DNA of 63,997 bases, filler included, from Basidiobolus ranarum (lineage: Eukaryota): assembly GCA_040143965.1 (NCBI GenBank). It is 7 parts of 7 records of this genome, joined end to end, with 100 filler letters (N's around TTAATTAATTAA, not from the genome) between each part and the next. Parts side by side here need not be neighbours in the genome. Positions count along the whole stretch, not along the records: positions 27,901 to 37,092 come from JASJQH010007738.1; 6 more parts are not named here. One strand, written 5' to 3'. Made by a program: the position numbers and the translations under genes. Below, one piece after another: positions 2,191 through 37,092 of this stretch. Each line of letters starts with the position of its first letter. The stretch's first letter is position 1. The notes under the pieces were generated by a model, which saw nothing but the letters and a program-made list of their open reading frames with translations, was not told where the DNA came from and made no database searches.

Positions 2191-3341
2191 TTACACTGTT
2201 CTGGTGGAGTTTTCGTTTTGCCTTCCTGGTGTAAAAGCGTGATCTTCAGTCTCATTTTCACCGCTACCGTTAGGGTGTACCTGAAATAGAACATTAGATA
2301 TCTGATATGTAATCACAAGAAAATGTATTGTATTCACCGATCTGTTCAGAATCATAGTTTTGAGCTCCTCTTTAAGAATCAAAAATACCAGAAGTTAGGC
2401 GTATCCATAAATGTATAAAACTATGGCTGTATCGTTAATGAGTTTACCAAATTTCTGATCGGATAGCTTGTTGAATCTAATGGAACTGGAGCCTTGATGG
2501 TCTCCATAAAGATTGGAGTCCATAACTGAGTACTCGGCACAATTCTTTGCAAATTCTGCAAATACTTCTGGCTTGTTACGGTACCTGAAATGAATAAAAC
2601 GTTACTCTAACGCTTCGGATACTGCATGAAAGAGGATGGTTGGTTACATTAACCAAGCTTCTTGATTTGGACAGTTATGTTGTTGGAGGTTGTCAAGAAC
2701 GGATTTTTTGAATGAACTCTTGATATAATAAAGTATATGCGAAATAAAATCCTTATGAGGAGTCCAATGCGGAAAACGCTGCTTCAAAGAAAAACGACGA
2801 TACACATCTACTAAAGGATGGAATACGTCGTTAATGAAGTCAACGGAAGGTGCCTTGTCAGGATACGTAGGTAACGTTAAGGATAATAAGAGAATAAAAG
2901 TCAAAAACATTTAAGCTCGTTAAAAAAGGATATTCTTGTGGGATGACAAGCTTGAATTTGAATATTCCATTTCGATAATATCCCTTGTGAACAAAGATTG
3001 TACCATACCAAACTATTTCGACCATACATAAGGATTAGAAGCTTATTTATAAATAACATTATGAACGATAATAAATCACTACCGTTCATGTTGTCTAAAG
3101 ATGGCATCATATAGATTCCACTGGGGCAATGGCTTGGATTCCGAAGGTTGGTAAATTCAATCATGAGTTCATAACGCTTGAAGTATTGAGAATAAAATTG
3201 TGGGCGTTTTTTTTGAGATACTCTTTCTGAAGCGGCTTCCGAATCATCTTGCTCATACAACGCACTATCAGTCTTTGGGCTTCTAGTGGCTTGAATTGAC
3301 AATGAAGTGCCTTGTCTAGGAGTACCATTATTTGACATCAT
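2191..3341 (-). CDS. AKTIP/Ft1-like ubiquitin E2 variant (UEV) protein, multi-exon
   Basis: Spliced: GIYMMPS..VWYGTIFVHKGYYRNGIFKFKLVIPQE|YPDKAPSVDFINDVFHPLVD..WTPHKDFISHILYYIK; UBC fold with no catalytic Cys after HPLV. Confidence 0.8.
2867..2933 (-). other. U12-type AT-AC intron (67 nt) in the AKTIP-like gene
   Basis: 5' splice site ATATCCTTT, branch TCCTTAAC 9 nt before the terminal AC; removal joins CAA GA|G TAT CCT (QEYP) in frame. Confidence 0.92.
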
Positions 3342-5064
3342 AATCCACGCTGCTATATTGGGGTAGTGAAAGGAACCTTAGCTATACCTCAAAGAAGACC
3401 TGATGTATGAAGGCTAATTTTGTGAAACATTTAACCCTTATACGAAGTGAAAGTAATAAGTAAATTCAGGAGTAAACTGCTATCATGTTTCATAGTTAAC
3501 TCAATTTATTGATTAGTAAATTTTATTTAACATTTACAAATTTTGACTAGTAAAACCAACATTTAATCTGCCACTAAATAGTTGCAGAAATTTGATTAAT
3601 CCATGACATTCTGTTAATTAAAGCTACGAATTTATACCAGACTATACATGTACTCCACGGCATCAGAACCTTTATCCTTACGAAGAGTAAAAAAAGTATT
3701 TAGGTAAGAACGAAGATGAGGAGCTTGAACTACTCATTCTAGAATCTCTTTATCAATACACTTCTGATCAACATTGCGAGTTTCGGGAATGGTTTTCTTT
3801 CGTTGTTTCTCATCGAAAAATTCATCTGATGGAAGTGGCTACAACGTAAGATTGATTGACACGTATTAAAGGGACTCCGTTCACTTTATAAGGACCAGTA
3901 ACTAGCAATAAACCAGAGGTAAGCCGCTTCAAATGCACCATTCTCTTACCACAGAATCATACAGCCAAGAGAACAATTATACCAGGGGTGCAGGAAGCAC
4001 AAAGTATAGTGGGCTTGGCAGTCTTACGAGAGGCTTTAGGTTGGACAACATCTTATGCAGGATACCAACGAGGAGCTTTGTTCAAAGAGAGAGCTCATTA
4101 CCATTTTCTCGCCGTTAACTTGTTCATGGTAGCTGAGTCATTTGCTTTTATAAAGGGCACGCCTGAACGAGAGAGGTTAGTAATGCCAGGAGCGAGGAAG
4201 AATTCTAGGCTTGTGAGACGTGTTTTTAGATTCACCACTAAAAATAGTTTTTGAACAGTAGTCGATGGATGTAATGGCTTGCAGGTTGGTCCGTTCGAGA
4301 ATGTCATTTAGATTTTTGGATTATATTGACTCGTTTTAGAATTGATAACTCGCCAGGTACTGTAGACCACTAGATATAGAATTACCAAGAGAGGGCAACT
4401 TAGGATCACCATTCATAAAAATATACAATACTTTGTAGCCAATCAATTCGGTGTGAGGGAATTATCAACAAACCTTTCACTAATCCCTAATAAAATAAAA
4501 GACAATTTACATTACAACACTTCAGTTGTATAAACCCCAACTTGACGGTAGAGCACATTCCGAAAAAGTAAAGAAATATTTGTTCAAAACAAATTCACAC
4601 ATTGATTTGACCAGATCATCCGTGGCAATATTCACTTGGGTGCCAGGTGCTGAACAAAACAGAGTCATCGGGTGAAGATCGTACAAATTTACCAGTCACT
4701 TCCACAAAGCTTCTGTGATTGAATTGAGAATGGGATTGGAACTTTGAAGTATTGATCAATTTGGATCAGCAAACAAAGAAATCTAGATGGAAAGTCGTCA
4801 CTTAGCACAACAGAAAGAAGTCCAAAATGCCTTATCCATTTTGATTGGTTATACTTTACTGTTGACATGACTTTTAGAAGCTCTTGACTGGAATAAAGTT
4901 TTATTAATATATTTCCTCCTATTTAATTGGTAGAGTCGTTGTTTTGTTCAGACACGCAGTTGACACTCAGGTACACGTGATGTGATTCGCGATTTAACTA
5001 TATAATCCACATAACACGCTATGGCAGCAAACATTCTCACTCTACTCAACCATTTCAATCATTA

Positions 5065-28168: not shown

Positions 28169-28368
28169 GTTTGTGGCACGAGTTATTGCGCTCCTCCCCA
28201 TCAATAGACACGAAGGCCTGATTTCAAAGAGAACCGCACCCAACCCATTCCTATATTTTTCAATCTTCAATTTATATACGGCCTAGTGCTTAATCGACGG
28301 ACTCCTACGCGGAGCCATCATCGCAAAGGTGCTTTTAGATAAATTGTGATAAATGCGTTGTAAGGATT
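28169..28368 (-). ncRNA. Box H/ACA snoRNA, snR37/SNORA10-like, copy 1
   Basis: Hairpin-H box (AAAATA)-hairpin-ACA+3 nt; 3' pocket TGGGTG/CAAT complementary to LSU GGAUUG-U-UCACCCA, 14 nt from ACA; near-identical to copies at 32631 and 36899. Confidence 0.75.
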
Positions 28369-28386
28369 GGTTAAAGCATTGTAGCC

Positions 28387-28418
28387 ATATATATTGTGAA
28401 TACGTCTTCAGTGGGATT
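28387..28418 (-). promoter_or_regulatory. AATCCCAC + TATA upstream module of snoRNA copy 1
   Basis: GTGGGATT at 28411-28418 and ATATATA at 28387-28393; same motifs upstream of the other two copies in otherwise divergent flanks. Confidence 0.6.
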
Positions 28419-28598
28419 AGATTTATTCCTGGCGAGAAGTAAAATAACTGATATATCATTTAAGTCTAGAACGCACTTGGTCTGGAACGTATTTGGTAAA
28501 TTCACAAGTGTTCACTAGATTGTGCATAGATCTGAGTAATCTTAAGTGAGCCATATTATAGTGCACAGTCTATATTAAAGTTATTTTGCAGATGATAT

Positions 28599-29624
28599 TT
28601 AGTTTTCCTCAATAAAGCCACCCATCATAAACTCCATAATCTTCTTTGCTAGCCAGATACTATCATCAGAAACATTGAGCTGTTGGTATACTTCATTGGC
28701 TAACTCTGGCGACAAACTCCCGGCCTTTTCTTTAAAACGAGTGATCTCTTCAACGATGCTTGGTGTGAATTCGGGATGTCCTTGAATAGTGAAGATATGG
28801 TTGGGCTTCAACATTGCTTGAACTTCACATAAATTTGAAGAGCACAACACTTCTAAACCAGGTGGGCTATAGGTCACTATGTCCTGATGTACTTGTTGTA
28901 GTTTCTAAGATAGTAATATCATTTAAAATACAATAACTTTCGATAAAAGAAGCATAAGTGACATACCAAACTATCTCTGTTGGTTTTAAGTAGCTTCTTT
29001 CCTGCGGTATTAAGTTGGACTTCGGTGAGGCCAATCTAAGGTGAAACCATTTAGAAATAAAAGGTTATACGCGTATGCTTATTCAATATCCTACCTCCCA
29101 ACCTTTCTTGTTTTTTGCAACTGTACCGCCCATAGCGCGTGCAATTAATTGGTGCCCAAAGCATACTCCGACCAATTTACATTCTGGTACATCTGTGATT
29201 AATTGCTTGAGATATTCGTTCAAGTGGAAAATCCAAGGTTCGTCACTAGCGGCAGAAGCGGCTAAGAATAGAACGTAAAGTATAAATAAAGATTTTAACT
29301 TGAACCACCATAAAGTTCCGTTAGATTCATACCAGATCCGGAGAGAATAATCCCTTGAAAACCAGAGTGTTCAGAGGGATATTGCATTTTGGTAACATCA
29401 AAGTTTTCCCATTCTACCTTGATATTTCTCCCCGATAGAGCGATGGCCTTGCGTAGCATTTCTGGGAATATCTTAGTATAATCCCCGTGTTGCTCAACAA
29501 CATTAGCGGGTGGGGTATCAGCAACGAGAAGAGCAATCCTTAAGGTAGTAGAATGCTCGGAGATATTTGTGGTAGGTTGAAGTCTCTCCATTTTAGACTC
29601 AAGGTTCATAAGTTCAGCTTCCAT
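28599..29624 (-). CDS. Class I glutamine amidotransferase-like protein (YLR126C-like), multi-exon
   Basis: GIILSGS, LVGVCFGHQLIARAMGG nucleophile Cys, TIQGHPEF. Confidence 0.88.
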
Positions 29625-30390
29625 TTTTCTTTGTATTGTAAAGTTACGGTTGCAAAGGCTAGTCAGATATATATAACTTCTCGAGGTTTTGTGTACTCTT
29701 GGGCCGAATCCTGGATTGCTTCCGTAATCCAATCTTGAGTTTTTGCCAGATCTGTTCTAGCGCAAATCAATCCAATAAGCAGCCTTATTTAGCGCCTCTA
29801 TCGTTTATCCGATGTACCTATTGACCATTTTTACCAAAAGTTGACTATTAATTTACTCAATAAAAGAAGAAGCGACATAAACATTCTAAATGTGATTCGA
29901 AATGGAGCAAGTGTGTAAAATGGTCGATAATCGGATAGGGTTAGGATCGATGGTAGCCAATCATACGAATAGCATCAACAAAAGTCCATAATTCCTATGT
30001 GGCTAATATACTAATATCAGTATCTGAGCATTGGAGAAGATACCATATCACGTGAACCAAGGTTAGATATTTCATGGCTTTGTTTGTTCAAGAAAGAATC
30101 CAGTTCGTTTCAGGGAGCACTTTGTACGCAACGTTGACATAATCAAATCATGACCTGGTATCATATTTATAAACTATCAATTGTCTTTATAGTTTAAGGA
30201 GGATGGAATATTTTGAGAAGCAATCTAAGCCACCATTCATTGAATCTAATAGTGAAGGATTTGACTGAACCGATGGATGGCTTAGCTGTCAACAAAAGTA
30301 TAAAATCTCCTACAATCCGTAACCATTCCAACGCAACAATAAATATTTCAATAACTACACATCTTTAACTTTCTTGATAGTTAGAACACT

Positions 30391-31623
30391 ATGAAATCCC
30401 TTTTGTTCCTACAACTAGCTCTGCTTTCTAGCGCCGCCGTAGTGAAATATCCTAACTCCGGTCGCTCACGTGGAAGCAGTAACTCAGTTTTCGATATTTT
30501 AGCCGAGGACAACCGTTTTTACGACTTCTTGGATGTGCTATCTAAAGAACGTAGTTTGACTGATGATTTACAAGATAGTAAGCAGGAGGTCACTGTATTC
30601 GCTCCAACTAACCAGGCATTTGAGAAACTGCGAAACACATACCAGGGTAACCTTCCACGTGAGGAACTAAGAGATGCCGTCCGTTATCATTTTATTCCTG
30701 AGTGGCTCGAATATGAAGATTTAAGAGAAGAGAAATTGATAGAAACGCAATTGAGGCCACGCGGATTGGACGGAGAATATCAGAAAATTCGCGTTGTACG
30801 TAGAGAAGGGCATGTCGTATTGAATAATCTAGTATCAATTAGTGAAGCTGATTTGGAAGCTAGAAACGGGATTGTTCACGCTGTAGATGATGTCCTACTA
30901 CCTCCACCAAAGGTTACTGATTTGATTTTCCGTATGGCAAATAAGTTCTCTACTTTTAGTGCCGCTCTTCAAAGGACAGGTCTGAATGATGATTTTGAGA
31001 GAGAGAAAGGAATAACCGCCTTTGTACCTACAAACTCTGCATTCAGAAAATTAGGCTGTCGTGCTCTAAATTACCTATTTGGTGAGGAGGGTGAAAAAGA
31101 TCTAAGAAGAATTCTTGAATTCCACTTTTCTCCAGAACTAGTCTATGGTACAGAGATTGAGGAACAAGCTGGTCATCGTGGAGGCAGCAAGGATCGTAAC
31201 AGATGGAATCGTGGTCGACGAGGCGGTCGGGATGATGATGATGATGACTATGGTCGGGGTAGGCGTAGAGGCGGTCGCCGCGGCTCTGACTGGGAAGAGG
31301 ATCGTGATTTGGATAGCAAAGTAACTCCTGCTTTTAACCTGAACTATCCTCGAGGTAGCCAAGGTAACCGTAGAGGTCGCTCAGGTTATAATGATGTTAC
31401 TGAATTACCATCATTCTTGCGTGGAGAGAAAATTTATCTCGAAGTGAAGAAAACACCTAGTCGTAGAGTTTATATTAATGTTAACGATGAAGCACGTGTA
31501 ATCTTCTCCGATATTCCATCTGAAAATGGCGTCTTTCATGCGATTGACCAAGTTTTATTACCTGAAAATTTGGATATCCCTGACTACGACTGGTTTGATA
31601 ACGATGATCAATGTGATTTCTAA
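30391..31623 (+). CDS. Secreted fasciclin (two FAS1 domains) with an RGG/Asp-rich insert
   Basis: Signal peptide; TVFAPTNQAF...NGIVHAVDDVLLP and TAFVPTNSAF...NGVFHAIDQVLLP. Confidence 0.9.
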   Translation: MKSLLFLQLALLSSAAVVKYPNSGRSRGSSNSVFDILAEDNRFYDFLDVLSKERSLTDDLQDSKQEVTVFAPTNQAFEKLRNTYQGNLPREELRDAVRYHFIPEWLEYEDLREEKLIETQLRPRGLDGEYQKIRVVRREGHVVLNNLVSISEADLEARNGIVHAVDDVLLPPPKVTDLIFRMANKFSTFSAALQRTGLNDDFEREKGITAFVPTNSAFRKLGCRALNYLFGEEGEKDLRRILEFHFSPELVYGTEIEEQAGHRGGSKDRNRWNRGRRGGRDDDDDDYGRGRRRGGRRGSDWEEDRDLDSKVTPAFNLNYPRGSQGNRRGRSGYNDVTELPSFLRGEKIYLEVKKTPSRRVYINVNDEARVIFSDIPSENGVFHAIDQVLLPENLDIPDYDWFDNDDQCDF

Positions 31624-32346
31624 GTTATTTTTTTATGTTGCCCCTATACCACTGAATGGAAAAAAACACGGTAAACTGAAATACTATGTAACTTTTTTAT
31701 GGAGCTAAAGAATACCCTTGGTTACTAAAAGCATGTAAAAAACCCCGCTATATAAATGTTGAATATGTGATCAGTGATAAACAATAAAACTCATTCAATC
31801 GGAAAACTATGGATATTGAATGGAGCGAAAACCAAGTCTGAATATAAAATCATAACCCGGTATTCCACATAAGGAGATTTCGGGGATAGGCCCCGGAATA
31901 TTGTAGTGTTACAGATGCTTAAAAAACATAGCAGTATGAGTAACTTCGTTTGTGTGAATTCTTCAAGGCATTTGATAGCAATATTGCAACTTTACTATAG
32001 AGAAACGTGATGATTTACACTTGGATCCTGGCCTCGCATTCTAATTATCATAACATCAACGTCATCTCTGGTTTCATAATTTTCTCACCCTAAAGTCCAA
32101 CCAAATATGACCAACATTGAGTGGCAATACTTGTCCTTCAATCAAAATGCTCTGGTACCAAGTTAAAATTACGATTCATATTTTCGTACTTCCAACCTTC
32201 CTGACATATAGCAATTCCACATTTAATCCGATAACAATTCAAACTAAAAATATCCAAAATGATTGAAGCGATTTCTAAACAAAACTTTGCGCTAATCTAA
32301 CTAAAAGAAAATTGAGGTAACATATATAAAAGTCACATAAAAACGA

Positions 32347-32417
32347 TGCGCCGTCCGGGAATCGAACCCGGGGCTAAAGCTTGGGAAGCTTCAATTCTAC
32401 CACTGTACTAACGGCGC
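32347..32417 (-). tRNA. tRNA-Gly(CCC), intronless
   Basis: GCGCCGT acceptor stem, anticodon arm GAAGC-TTCCCAA-GCTTT, GGTTCGATTCC T-loop, downstream T-run. Confidence 0.95.
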
Positions 32418-32630
32418 TTTTATATTTTGAAGAAACTCATTCAATATCCCTATCTTCATTCTATCGTAAAGTAGTCAGAGAGTATTGATCTCTGGTGATA
32501 CTCATACTTTGATGCATACTATACGTTCAAATACAAATACATCCCAGCTCCTTGAGTCCTGTCGTAGTAACCATATACAAGGTTATATTAGAAATAATAG
32601 TTTGAATGATTTTAAAGTAATAAGGGGATA

Positions 32631-32830
32631 GTTTGTGGCACGAGTTATTGCGCTTCTCCCCATCAATAGACACGAAGGCCTTATTTCAAAGAGAACCGCA
32701 CCCAACCCATTCCTATATTTTTCAATCTTCAATTTATATACGGCCTAGTGCTTAATCGACGGACTCCTACGCGGAGCCATCATCGCAAAGGTGCTTTTAG
32801 ATAAATTGTGATAAATGCGTTGTAAAGATT
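32631..32830 (-). ncRNA. Box H/ACA snoRNA, snR37/SNORA10-like, copy 2
   Basis: 200 nt, differs from copy 1 at about 3 positions; same ACA, H box and pockets. Confidence 0.75.
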
Positions 32831-32850
32831 AGCATAGATTTCAACTCTGC

Positions 32851-32880
32851 TTATATTGTAAAACATCGGATAGTGGGATT
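32851..32880 (-). promoter_or_regulatory. AATCCCAC + TATA upstream module of snoRNA copy 2
   Basis: GTGGGATT at 32873-32880 (same -43..-50 offset as copy 1) and TTATA at 32851-32855. Confidence 0.6.
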
Positions 32881-33691
32881 GAAATGATTACCTCAGTAAT
32901 TGAATTAATCCTATAGCACCATACTAAAGCAGCAATATCGGTCAGGACAACCTGTTTAACATTGTCACACAGAAAATGGAAGTTGCCTAGTGGCTAATAA
33001 TAGTGCTTTACTAATTCGAGTTATTTACTCACCAACAGATAATGGTTAAGCGATGGCAGAATTGATCATGTCGGGTTAAGCTATAATACCTAGAAATCAT
33101 GGTTTTCACTGCAGAGTCAAGATAGCCAATGGAACAAGGGTTAGGGTTACGGTATATATTAAAGGGCTAAATAGCGACATGGATTGTTTTCCATCTAGAA
33201 TTTATCAGATGACCAGAACACAAATCAGCTAAGGGAGCAATATAATGTCAAAGTATCAATAGAACAATACAATCAGAGAATTTTTTCAATCGAATTCTTA
33301 AGGACTTCAACTTTTTTCGTTACTAATAATTGGATAGATACTCCCCTGCTTATTGAATGACCCCAAAAAGTTCAGTTTTAATATGATAATATTCAAAGTT
33401 CAATCATGTCTTAAGTAGTAAATTGGTCACCTAAAATCGTAAGCTGCATCAAATAGTCAGTAGGTTACGACTTAGATTTTTTTATATAATTAGCGGTCCT
33501 CATTTTTTACGACTTAGAATTTTTTTCCCTCTCTTCCTCTTCAATTTTTTATCTGACTTTCCCCTCCTATACCTTCATTTATTCAGTGATAGTTCGCTTT
33601 TGACAACTCTCGCTGAAAGCCGTATTGTTCTTCCCCTTTAGTTTCATCCAAATTTCCCACTTTTTCCTCGGCTAAAAACCGTCCTGTTACT

Positions 33692-36605
33692 ATGTCTGAT
33701 TCAGAAGACGACGTTCCCCTCGGCTATAAAGCCCAACGTAAACTTCAAGTAACTTCGGATTATGACTCTGACGACGATGTTCCACTTCAAAAGCGTTCCC
33801 AAGTCAACACGTCCGTAAAGAAAGAAGGTATTTTCCTTTTGTCGTTTTATTCATCTTTGGTGCTCCAACAGCGTTGACACACGACGTGTATCACTATTAT
33901 ATAGTATAAAGTTGAAAATTATCCAAATAACCTCTTTTTTAACGTGTTTTTATTTACACAGAAGCATCTTCCGCAACATTACCAGCGTTGTCCAACGGTT
34001 CTAACGGTGTGAAGAGGAAACCGGAAGTACAAAAGGTATAGCTATGTTTTACTTGGTCATGTTCAGTACACGTTGAAGTCTATCTTCTAAATTAGGAAGT
34101 CACTAGATTTGTGAACCTATCGCTAGGGATATAATTTATCCCACCAATTACGAATTGATCCCAATTCATTTTAGAATACACTGTTTAACCTATGTACTCT
34201 TGTTTCTAATCAACCTAGGATTCGCGTAAAAAAATCAAAACAGAAGATTCCTCTGATGATGAACCTTTGGTAAACTTCATATTTTCTATTGATATTGAAA
34301 GTTTTACGCGTTTTAAACTAGAATTTTCCCTTCCAAATTCTACCATTTAGGTTAAGCGTGTTTCTCGAGTTAAATCAGAACCTAATTCTAATAAGCCTTC
34401 TGCTAACGCAGCTAAAAAACGTGTCAGCAGTGTTAAGGATGAGTCCGATGATGATGTACCTTTGGCTAAGAAAACCGCCAAAACTACAGTTAAAAAGGCT
34501 ACACCTCGCGTGAAAAAAGAGGCTACTCCAAGCACTCCTTCTGGTCGCGGAAAGAAGACTAACGAGGAGACACCATCCAAAGACAAGGGCAAAGTGAAAG
34601 AAGAAGAGGAGGAAGAGACCTACAAATGGTGGGAAGATAGCAATCAAGATAACACCATCAAATGGAATACTTTACAACATAATGGTGTCTTATTTCCACC
34701 CGATTATATCCCTCATGGGGTGAAAATGAAGTATGAAGGTAAAGTAATCGAGTTACTACCGGAAGCTGAAGAGGTTGCCGGTTTCTTTGCTGCCTTACTT
34801 GGCTCAGATCATGGAAATAATCCCACATTCCAAAAGAATTTCTTTAACGATTGGACCGAGTTGATCAAGAAGGTATATGCAGAGAAGAATCAAACCCCAC
34901 CTCCCATTAAAGAGTTTTCGAAATGCGATTTCACTCCTATGTTTGAACACTTTCAACGTGAAAAAGAAGCCAAGAAATCCATGACCAAAGAAGAAAAGGC
35001 GGAAATAAAGGCGCAAAAATTACTCATTGATGAGAAATACGGTTACGCCATTCTAGACGGAAGAAGAGAGAAAGTTGGTAACTTCAGAATTGAACCTCCA
35101 GGTCTGTTTCGTGGTCGTGGTGAGCATCCTAAAACTGGATGTCTCAAGCAACGTGTTCAACCTGAACAAGTCACCATCAATATCGGAAAAGAGGCAAAGT
35201 TGCCTGAAGCACCACCTGGCCATCAATGGGGTAAAATCATTCATGACAATACAGTTACATGGCTAGCTATGTGGAAAGAGAATGTCAACGACAATATCAA
35301 GTACGTTTTCTTGGCTGCTGGCAGTTCCCTTAAGGGTCAGAGTGATTTAAAGAAATTTGAAAAGGCACGAAACCTTAAAAAACTTGTGGGAAAGATTCGA
35401 CGCGATTATATGAACGATTTGAAAGACAAGGTGATGGCTACAAGACAACGAGCCACAGCCTTGTACTTGATCGATAGACTTGCGCTCAGAGCTGGTAATG
35501 AAAAGGGTGATGATGAAGCTGATACTGTCGGTTGTTGTTCCTTACGGTATGAACATATTGAATTGGTTCCTCCCAATACAGTTGTGTTTGATTTCTTGGG
35601 TAAAGATTCTATCAGATATTATAACGAAGTCAATGTCGACGAGCAAGTATTCAAAAATTTGAAATTGTTCAAGAAGCCACCCAAGGGCGAAGGTGATGAT
35701 CTTTTCGATCGACTTACCACCCAATCACTTAATAAGCACTTGTCTTCCCTCATGCCTAGTCTTACCGCCAAAGTATTCCGTACTTACAATGCGTCTTTCA
35801 CGTTTCAAGATGAGCTCAAGAAGACTCCTGTCGATGGAACGATCGCTGAGAAGTTGTTGGCTTACAACCGTGCCAATCGACAAGTGGCAGTTTTATGTAA
35901 CCATCAAAGGAGTGTTAGTAAAGCTCATGGTGCCCAGATGACTAGAATTCAAGATAAATTAAGGGCACTTAAATACCAACGTCGTCGCCACAAGCAACAA
36001 TTGGCCTTGATGGATCCTAAACTCAAGAAAAAGCGCCCTGAGCTTTTTGAGCCTGAGTCGGATCTTGAAGATGAGTGGGTTGAGGAGTATGAGAAAGACA
36101 TGCTAGAGAAAGAGCGTGAAAAGATCAAGGCGAAGTTCGAAAAGGATAACCAAGTGCTTAAGGAAAACAAGGAAAAACCACTTCCACAATCTGAACTCAA
36201 GGAGTTGTTGTCCAAGGTGGATGAGAAAGCAAAGGAGTTGAAACAAGAGAAGAAAACAGGAGAGGTTTACGCTATCAAAAAGAATGCTACCGTGGAAAGA
36301 TTAGAGACTGCGATTAGTAAACTTACCGAGAGAATTTTGACTACCAAAACCACTATGGTGGATAAAGATGAAAACAAAACCACTGCTCTTGGTACATCCA
36401 AAATCAACTACATCGATCCCCGTATTTCTGCTGCTTGGTGCAAGAAGTATGATGTTCCTTTGGAGAAGATTTTCAACAAGAGTTTAAGAGATAAGTTCAA
36501 GTGGGCTATGGATGTTGATGATGATTGGGTAAGTTGATTTAGAGGATTCCATTGTAACTAACCCTACATGATACTAACGAACTTTTTAACATCTAGGAAT
36601 TTTAA
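33692..36605 (+). CDS. TOP1: DNA topoisomerase IB, 5 exons
   Basis: KWNTLQHNGVLF, EPPGLFRGRGEHPK, LALRAGNEK, ADTVGCCSLR, catalytic SKINYIDPR; micro last exon GAA TTT TAA at 36597-36605. Confidence 0.98.
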
Positions 36606-36898
36606 AATATCTGTTATTTCAACAAACAATTGACGCTCTATTTTCCTATTATTGTTGATGACAATCGAGTTAGAAACAGTGTTGACTCACGACCTCTTCA
36701 TCCAACTTTTGGAGACTTTAAGTGATTTTCACCTTTTTTATACATAGTATTTATATTTGTTGTAGAATAAAAATTATCCACTCCAAACCATTTTACTCGA
36801 TATAAAAATCTTCCTAATTATCCATAACGAAATTATCAACAATCCCACACTTTCATTTATATCCTATTTTATATATCAGTCAAGTTTCAAATATGATG

Positions 36899-37092
36899 AA
36901 TCTTTACAACGCATTTATCACAATTTATCTAAAAGCACCTTTGCGATGATGGCTCCGCGTAGGAGTCCGTCGATTAAGCACTAGGCCGTATATAAATTGA
37001 AGATTGAAACAAATAGGAATGGGTTGGGTGCGGTTCTCTTTGAAATCAGGCCTTCGTGTCTATTGATGGGGAGAAGCGCAATAACTCGTGCC
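36899..37092 (+). ncRNA. Box H/ACA snoRNA, snR37/SNORA10-like, copy 3 (cut by the gap just before the ACA box)
   Basis: Inverted near-identical copy; H box AAACAA at 37007-37012; AATCCCAC at 36841-36848 and TATATAT at 36870-36876 upstream. Confidence 0.7.

Follow-up and report, generated by a model that had tools for sequence, protein, structure and literature searches.

Three near-identical units on one Basidiobolus contig

The window analysed here is a stretch of 63,997 nucleotides (nt) of DNA from Basidiobolus ranarum (assembly GCA_040143965.1), a member of a genus placed in the Zoopagomycota, and consists of seven contigs (~9.2 kb each) joined with artificial N/TTAATTAATTAA spacers. One of these contigs, JASJQH010007738.1 (27901-37092 of the window), carries all three copies of a unit of about 200 nt, which we describe here as a box H/ACA small nucleolar RNA (snoRNA) with a guide of the snR10 type. 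The copies are as follows:

28169..28368, minus strand: copy 1, complete; a 197-nt conserved block with ACA at its end, and 3 nt more; Rfam Afu_182, 70.2 bits
32631..32830, minus strand: copy 2, complete; 98.5% identity to copy 1; Rfam Afu_182, 68.7 bits
36899..37092, plus strand: copy 3, cut by the contig end directly before ACA; 97.9% identity to copy 1; Rfam Afu_182, 56 bits

When copy 1 was compared with the whole window by blastn, these three places were the only ones found (200/200 nt at 100%, 200/200 at 98.5% and 194/194 at 97.9%), in agreement with the initial annotation, which had reported three near-identical copies on this contig and none on the other six; the remaining matches were 11-14 nt long and attributable to chance (E 4.2). 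Copy 3 ends at 37092, the end of the contig, two letters past its final hairpin, and its ACA lies outside the contig.

Within their 194-200 nt, the copies vary at five sites only:

position 5: in the leader
positions 112 and 114: past the H box, in the linker of the hinge; private to copy 3
position 149: apical loop, variant in copy 2
position 176: G (copy 1) or A; the partner of U137

None of these five differences affects a box, a pocket or the pairing of a stem. In the upstream flanks (150 nt), identity between copies was 0.55-0.64, compared with 0.57-0.59 (standard deviation ~0.02) for shuffled sequences. Past the ACA, copies 1 and 2 retain a weak similarity for ~30 nt (identity over the first 35 nt of 0.71 versus 0.60 when shuffled, standard deviation 0.05), and the downstream flanks beyond 35 nt are at the shuffled level (0.54 versus 0.55). 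Neither a poly(A) tail nor terminal inverted repeats nor a target-site duplication was seen bordering the three copies.

The units have the architecture of a box H/ACA snoRNA

Both minimum-energy and pocket-constrained folds of the RNA yielded two hairpins (~19-106 and 118-194) with a hinge between them, followed by ACA, which is the hairpin-hinge-hairpin-tail architecture of a box H/ACA snoRNA. The elements of this architecture are listed here, with copies 1 and 2 on the minus strand and copy 3 on the plus strand:

28354..28361 (copy 1), 32816-32823 (copy 2), 36906-36913 (copy 3): single-stranded 5' leader ACAACGCA, present in the consensus of both Afu_182 and snR10
28330..28336, 32792-32798, 36931-36937: 5' strand of the 5' hairpin pocket, AAAAGCA, complementary to GCUUUU in the large-subunit ribosomal RNA (LSU)
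28290..28296 (minus strand, copy 1): loop CGAUUAA of the 5' hairpin, in the place of yeast CCAUGAA; 5 of 7 letters match, unpaired in the fold
28276..28281, 32738-32743, 36986-36991: 3' strand of the 5' hairpin pocket, CCGUAU, starting 15 nt before the H box
28261..28266, 32723-32728, 37001-37006: H box AGAUUG, in the hinge; the homologous columns read AGANNR in relatives
28237..28242, 32699-32704, 37025-37030: 5' strand of the 3' hairpin pocket, UGGGUG, the same as in snR10 and in the Afu_182 consensus
28185..28188, 32647-32650, 37079-37082: 3' strand of the 3' hairpin pocket, CAAU, pairing with AUUG of the LSU A-loop
28172..28174 (copy 1), 32634-32636 (copy 2): ACA box; that of copy 3 lies outside the contig

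Folding recovered the long 3' hairpin, GGAATGGGTT...AACTCGTGCC with an upper stem TTCTCTTT/GGGGAGAA, that had been proposed from inspection of the sequence. Its lower stem was assigned by hand, through the pairs G118-C194, G119-C193, A121-U191, U122-G190 and G123-C189, followed by G124-U188, G125-C187, U126-A186 and U127-A185. The further proposal that this hairpin is followed by ACA can be verified in copies 1 and 2, where ACA stands directly after the hairpin; copy 3 stops directly before it. The coordinates proposed for the two strands of the 3' pocket in copy 3 (TGGGTG at 37025-37030 and CAAT at 37079-37082) were exact. In copies 1 and 2 the distance from the start of CAAU to ACA is 14 nt, and CCGUAU of the 5' pocket begins 15 nt before the H box; both distances fall in the range of 14-16 nt that characterises H/ACA guides.

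The H box itself required revision. It had been read as an ANANNA box preceding the 3' hairpin; the hexamer homologous to the H box of the relatives described below is AGAUUG, and a canonical AAAAUA does occur 7 nt past it in copies 1 and 2, at a distance of 22 nt from the 5' pocket. We take AGAUUG as the H box because of the spacing geometry of the 5' pocket and because relatives have AGANNR in these columns.

Rfam places the RNA in Afu_182, with a weaker match to snR10

The copies were scanned against 4227 Rfam families, with gathering cut-offs of 65 bits for Afu_182 (RF01496) and 70 bits for snR10 (RF01258). Copy 1 (model positions 1-195) and copy 2 both scored above the Afu_182 cut-off. 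A permissive scan of copy 1 (E <= 10) listed six matches, the second best of which was snR10 (27.2 bits, E 3.9e-4, model 1-245). Besides Afu_182, it alone was family-specific and had a meaningful E-value; its alignment spans AACGCA, GGGUGC, GCAAU and ACA. The same scan of copy 1 listed neither snR37 nor SNORA10 (one lower-scoring match, from the clan of a listed family, was suppressed and its name does not appear), which speaks against the snR37/SNORA10 identity put forward in the initial annotation, and SNORA21 was likewise not listed.

The 3' pocket fits the A-loop uridine that snR10 modifies in yeast

The pocket strands UGGGUG and CAAU pair with AUUG-UU-CACCCA, leaving UU unpaired, and this pairing was found in eukaryotic LSU fragments; the initial annotation had correctly read both the pocket geometry and the target sequence. 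The fragments came from contaminant contigs in prokaryote assemblies. Rfam assigned 16 of 20 scanned loci to LSU_rRNA_eukarya (model ~2525-3400), and for the target test we used the 12 longest fragments, leaving out L122, L123, L152 and L153. As a side observation, short, often low-coverage eukaryotic LSU contigs contaminate many prokaryote assemblies (L115-L153; 16 of the 20 scanned).

Which LSU uridine this is could be decided from the modification map of yeast 25S rRNA, which in the available text of PMC5699541 includes Psi2865, m5C2870, Psi2880, Um2921, Gm2922, Psi2923 (snR10), Psi2944 (snR37), Am2946, Cm2948, Cm2959 and Psi2975; PMC2879522 likewise has Psi2923 of the A-loop guided by snR10. 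The first unpaired U of AUUG-UU-CACCCA was set at each candidate site in turn, and the base expected at each of the 11 modified positions (2865-2975) was checked. With this U as U2923, 11 of the 12 fragments had the right base at 11/11 positions (8/11 in the twelfth, which contains N). With the same U as U2944, the site named in the initial annotation (human U4491), the agreement fell to 6/11 positions (4/11 in the twelfth fragment), so that this site was not borne out. For an 817-nt LSU fragment, an offset of 0 was the unique best fit, with 11 positions, and the next best offset gave 8.

By this comparison, the unpaired U is predicted to be the A-loop U equivalent to yeast U2923, the snR10 site, and the predicted A-loop target string of the 3' pocket is AUUGUUCACCCA. 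Because of the Rfam listing and the 11/11 fit to U2923 as opposed to 6/11 for U2944, we conclude that the RNA is a box H/ACA snoRNA with a guide of the snR10 (human SNORA21) type, not of the snR37/SNORA10 type.

Metagenomic relatives covary in the predicted stems

Relatives were sought in metagenome contigs with a pattern made of the blocks common to the window and to both Rfam consensus lines. This search found at least 114 loci with at least 79 distinct sequences, and the counts that follow are among the matches listed. At least 74 full-length relatives were recognised by nhmmer, with scores of 67-171 bits; at 34 bits, the Basidiobolus RNA is the most divergent member among those listed. Four loci (L006, L015, L072 and L113) were GC-rich chance matches with neither an Rfam nor an nhmmer match, one (L094) matched in its 3' part only, and all five were dropped before alignment.

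Rfam was run on 20 of the loci. Sixteen matched Afu_182, 15 of them at or above the cut-off, and the same 16 matched snR10 over the whole model (38-59.9 bits, E 1.9e-10 to 4.3e-5). Neither family was matched by the four chance loci in this set, and the only other family to reach an E-value of 0.01 among the 20 was represented by one Histone3 match in the flank of L007. Since the same 16/16 family loci (within L007-L106) match both models, Rfam Afu_182 and snR10 are, on these model matches, one family.

The three copies and 74 relatives were aligned with MAFFT (77 sequences), and covariation was counted over 24 named stem pairs, taken from the basal 5' stem and from both stems, lower and upper, of the 3' hairpin. 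Standard pairs occupied 89.6% of cells, compared with 35-46% when the partners were slid by 1-3 columns, and cells changed on both sides numbered 285, compared with at most 63 after sliding. In 500 shuffles, none reached the observed paired share, number of double-change cells, number of pair types or covariation score. The stems had been named by hand because RNAalifold, applied to the MAFFT alignment, returned no more than the upper 3'-hairpin stem (11 pairs, 8 of them with compensatory changes), and because MAFFT shifts the lower stem of the Basidiobolus copies by two columns. The count excludes the upper 5' hairpin because, when folds of the individual sequences were mapped to the alignment columns, the basal stem alone was consistently supported in the 5' hairpin. 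In the lower stem of the 3' hairpin, Basidiobolus GGGUU/AACUC is a compensated version of the stem top of the relatives, GAUC/GAUY, and relative to the Afu_182 family the Basidiobolus RNA is without 2 nt before the 3' pocket.

In the H box columns the relatives read AGANNR, with A as the last letter in 43 of 74 and G in 31 of 74, and two of them have AGAUUG itself. We also observed that the 5' leader, ACAACGCA(AA) in alignment columns 8-15, is common to yeast snR10, the Afu_182 consensus and the Basidiobolus RNA.

The 5' hairpin: a possible second guide and a processing element

The LSU fragments contain GCGAC(A/G)-UU-GCUUUUUGA, with its UU at -69/-68 from the A-loop site. Around GAC(A/G)-UU-GCUUUU, the 5' pocket of the Basidiobolus RNA could form 6 base pairs (bp) through AAAAGC and 3 bp through CGU, where relatives mostly have 6 + 4 bp, and the predicted target of the 5' pocket accordingly takes the form GAC(R)UUGCUUUU, 69 nt upstream of the A-loop site. 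Among the relatives, AAAGC is present in 58 of 74 and CGTC in 55 of 74: both occur together in 55, AAAGC alone in 3, CGTC alone in none, and neither in 16. The motif stands 14-16 nt from the AGA of the H box in all 60 sequences carrying it. We take the two human SNORA21 sites to be 28S U4401 and U4470, 69 nt apart, which is the spacing of the two sites predicted here.

On account of this pocket geometry, the LSU complementarity and the 69-nt spacing of the SNORA21 sites, the RNA is probably a double guide of SNORA21 type. For the narrower proposition that the 5' pocket (AAAAGC + CGU, 15 nt before AGAUUG) guides a second pseudouridine 69 nt upstream, we regard the chances of its being right or wrong as evenly balanced. 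The equivalent second site in yeast, 2854, does not appear among the modified sites listed in the available text of PMC5699541. A separate observation concerns the 16 of 74 relatives without both strands of the 5' pocket, which have, for example, AGTTTTCG replacing A.CGTC (columns 49-56 and 132-139); the two strands seem to have been lost together, and the second guide function with them, in a single sub-lineage, as in yeast.

In yeast, snR10 has a further role in 18S processing, through a 7-nt element, CCAUGAA, in the loop of its 5' hairpin (PMC2879522). The Afu_182 consensus has CcAUGAA at the corresponding place, and relatives carry CCATGA in 52 of 74 cases and the full heptamer in 11 of 74. 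The exact CCAUGAA is absent from the Basidiobolus 5' hairpin, which has CGAUUAA in the unpaired loop.

Upstream elements

Each copy is preceded by the same 8-mer, AATCCCAC, and then by a TATA-like run:

28411..28418, minus strand: AATCCCAC, 42 nt before copy 1; then TATATAT at 28387-28393
32873..32880, minus strand: AATCCCAC, 42 nt before copy 2; then TATAAG at 32850-32855
36841..36848, plus strand: AATCCCAC, 50 nt before copy 3; then TATATAT at 36870-36876

The TATA-like run lies 25, 25 and 29 nt upstream of copies 1, 2 and 3, respectively. AATCCCAC has five matches in the window, compared with 1.98 expected, and three of the five are those upstream of the copies. Its standing as a family-wide promoter element was considered and rejected: among the 69 distinct relatives that extend 150 nt upstream of the gene, three carry the full 8-mer, ~135 nt away and in one closely related group, and for this reason we treat AATCCCAC as a lead only. 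In a few relatives (L040, L042, L060, L096, L105, L029 and L012), mostly from one close group, we observed (A)ATCCCAC(A) 132-147 nt upstream, which may be a shared promoter element or may be due to chance.

Three probable paralogous genes and the alternatives

Very probably, each of the three units is a gene with its own promoter, all three being paralogues that encode one box H/ACA snoRNA of the snR10/Afu_182 family, to which human SNORA21 also belongs. The RNA is predicted to act in an H/ACA small nucleolar ribonucleoprotein (snoRNP; Cbf5/dyskerin, Nop10, Nhp2 and Gar1) that would convert the A-loop U to pseudouridine in the peptidyl-transferase centre. With less confidence, the CGAUUAA loop may take the part that CCAUGAA plays in yeast pre-rRNA processing. 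An old duplication, at the DNA level, of a unit of promoter plus gene would have given rise to the three copies, after which selection or gene conversion would have kept only the RNA-coding part constant. Duplication at the DNA level is preferred to retrocopying because AATCCCAC and the TATA-like run lie outside the RNA block, in flanks that have otherwise diverged.

Several observations weigh against this assignment. With Afu_182, copy 3 reaches 56 bits, short of the 65-bit cut-off (E 1.2e-9, model 1-191; Rfam flags a truncated 3' end). The snR10 score of copy 1 is far under its cut-off and relatives reach 38-59.9 bits, and orthology with snR10 therefore rests on pocket, target and layout. 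The nearest relative among the matches listed is only ~71% identical, and in the relatives the blocks ACAACGCA, TTGGGTGC, GCAAT and ACA were fixed by the search pattern, so that their invariance in the alignment is no evidence. The stability of the fold is ordinary (z -1.25, with 21 of 200 shuffles as stable), and the H box, AGAUUG, is ANANNG, not ANANNA. The 3' strand of the 5' pocket pairs over 3 bp only with the LSU variants, and the counterpart of the processing element, CGAUUAA, differs from CCAUGAA at two of seven letters. The LSU fragments come from other eukaryotes, and the 12 that were used amount to three distinct sequences within 70 nt on either side of the site.

A guide of the snR37/SNORA10 type, directed at the U equivalent to yeast 25S U2944 (human 28S U4491), would be an RNA of the same class acting in the same LSU region, and the pocket and target from which it was proposed had been read correctly. 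Given that no such match was listed at E <= 10 (with one match from the clan of a listed family suppressed), that 6/11 positions agree compared with 11/11 for U2923, and that in yeast 2923 belongs to snR10 and 2944 to snR37 (PMC5699541), we consider this identity scarcely conceivable. It is very unlikely that the units encode a regulatory long non-coding RNA (lncRNA) acting without a snoRNP, which is how Aspergillus afu-182 has been described. Afu-182 was cloned, detected on northern blots and reported as an 'entirely novel ncRNA' (PMC2377427), and its deletion alters growth at azole levels below the minimum inhibitory concentration (sub-MIC) in two Aspergillus species (PMC13439689). Such a regulatory phenotype could, however, still follow from snoRNA function, which the afu-182 papers did not examine, the terms 'snoRNA', 'snR10' and 'pseudouridyl' being absent from the available text of PMC13439689 and PMC13015456; and the H/ACA boxes, the pocket geometry and the covarying stems are kept across 74 relatives, a conservation for which an lncRNA role independent of sequence gives no account.

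The sharp borders of similarity between unrelated flanks, and the position of copy 3 at a contig end, as is often seen with repeats, would also suit a dispersed repeat (a SINE-like retrocopy or another mobile unit) or an assembly artefact. The borders, however, carry no poly(A), terminal inverted repeat or target-site duplication, and AATCCCAC and a TATA-like element, which a retrocopy would lack, lie upstream of the transcribed block at comparable distances. Every copy has flanks and private substitutions of its own, which argues against a single collapsed locus, and the 80 relatives that were fetched lie on 80 contigs with one match each (400 nt on either side being covered). We therefore judge a repeat or an artefact to be extremely improbable. 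A different possibility, compatible with three paralogous snR10-type genes, is that the active genes number only one or two, the remainder being young pseudogenes. In fungi, a snoRNA family is usually represented by a single gene in each species (PMC5824354), and copy 3 carries two hinge substitutions of its own and has a 3' end that lies outside the contig; on the other side, the five differences spare boxes, pockets and pairing, and the upstream motif and TATA-like element are kept in all three copies. This we think unlikely, though less so than the three alternatives above.

Relation to known RNAs

The Basidiobolus RNA shares with snR10 of Saccharomyces cerevisiae (RF01258) the H/ACA layout, the 5' leader AACGCA, a 3' pocket UUGGGUGC ... 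GCAAU that agrees letter for letter, 14 nt before ACA, the target (U2923 of the A-loop) and, where yeast has CCAUGAA, an unpaired loop element in the 5' hairpin. It differs in length (~200 nt, compared with 245 nt in yeast), in the loop itself (CGAUUAA, 5/7 letters), and in having three gene copies; yeast snR10 is single copy. In addition, the guide domain of yeast snR10 is described for the 3' hairpin only (PMC2879522), whereas the 5' hairpin of the Basidiobolus RNA has a pocket with guide geometry. Human SNORA21 (ACA21) is a double guide, as the Basidiobolus RNA may be, with two 28S targets, given as 'U4401 and U4480', but is shorter (133 nt) and intronic (PMC5552212). With snR37/SNORA10 the RNA has in common that it is an H/ACA guide, the pseudouridine of snR37 lying 21 nt downstream in the same LSU domain (PMC5699541); the site is a different one and there is no model match.

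Copies 1 and 2 match Afu_182 of Aspergillus fumigatus over its full length and above the cut-off, and share with it the blocks ACAACGCA, AAAAGCA, H box AGA.., UUGGGUGC, GCAAU and ACA. The Aspergillus nidulans homologue lies 240 bp after a gene on the same strand (PMC13439689), much as copies 1 and 3 lie ~230 and ~360 nt after same-strand open reading frames (ORFs). In Rfam, by contrast, Afu_182 is of type 'sRNA' and without a clan, and snR10 is classed as an H/ACA snoRNA. Afu-182 was left unclassified, as an 'entirely novel ncRNA', by a 2008 Aspergillus screen in which, according to its available text, no H/ACA snoRNA was identified experimentally (PMC2377427). It has since been presented as an intergenic lncRNA controlling sub-MIC azole growth, the homologues of which need complex approaches to be found (PMC13439689, 2026), and has been tied to thermal adaptation (PMC13015456, a 2026 preprint). 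In the literature searched, 'afu-182' and 'snoRNA' occur together in the 2008 screen only (PMC2377427), and the identity of afu-182 with snR10 is not stated; snR10 is already known in filamentous fungi, with a dermatophyte non-coding RNA labelled snR10 through Rfam in 2013 (PMC3890542) and Neurospora Nc_HACA_13 matched to snR10 (PMC5824354). The same searches found no mention of Basidiobolus snoRNAs. What is new here is the Basidiobolus member and the link between Afu_182 and snR10; the class and the family were already known.

Judged by its conserved blocks and model matches, the Aspergillus 'lncRNA' afu-182 has all the features of an snR10-type H/ACA snoRNA. A broader proposal, to which we give about as much credence as to its negation, is that afu-182 is the orthologue of snR10/SNORA21, a double guide that would have been kept from Zoopagomycota to Ascomycota for two uridines of the peptidyl-transferase centre, that its azole and temperature phenotypes are effects on the ribosome, and that the three Basidiobolus copies are possibly condition-specific. 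Yeast without snR10 is cold-sensitive (PMC2879522), which sits well with the temperature phenotype of afu-182. The snoRNA reading would give afu-182 a concrete and directly testable mechanism, and a simple motif or covariance model is enough to find homologues. For Basidiobolus, the reading amends the annotation: what repeat masking would conceal becomes three genes for a core guide of ribosome modification in an early-diverging fungus.

Gene neighbourhood

All three copies stand between genes on the one contig, which agrees with the description of a locally amplified, intergenic snoRNA in the initial annotation. Copy 1 follows, by ~230 nt, a same-strand ORF that is amidotransferase-like by reading of its translation; Pfam found no domain in the fragment of this ORF that was tested. 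Copy 2 is flanked by a fasciclin-domain gene and a topoisomerase I gene (both by Pfam), and copy 3 lies ~360 nt after the stop of the topoisomerase I gene, on the same strand. The topoisomerase ORF is 100% identical to the NCBI entry 'DNA topoisomerase 1 [Basidiobolus ranarum]'.

Two further features were noted in passing. The topoisomerase I gene (33617-36537, plus strand) has an acidic, serine-rich first exon (~33690-33800), followed by an intron of ~500 nt and the main ORF, and a DDDVPL motif is present in both exons. A tRNA-Gly(CCC) gene (32347-32417, minus strand; Rfam 59.2 bits, also called by ARAGORN) shares the strand of copy 2 and lies 213 nt downstream of it, whereas copies 1 and 3 have no adjoining tRNA.

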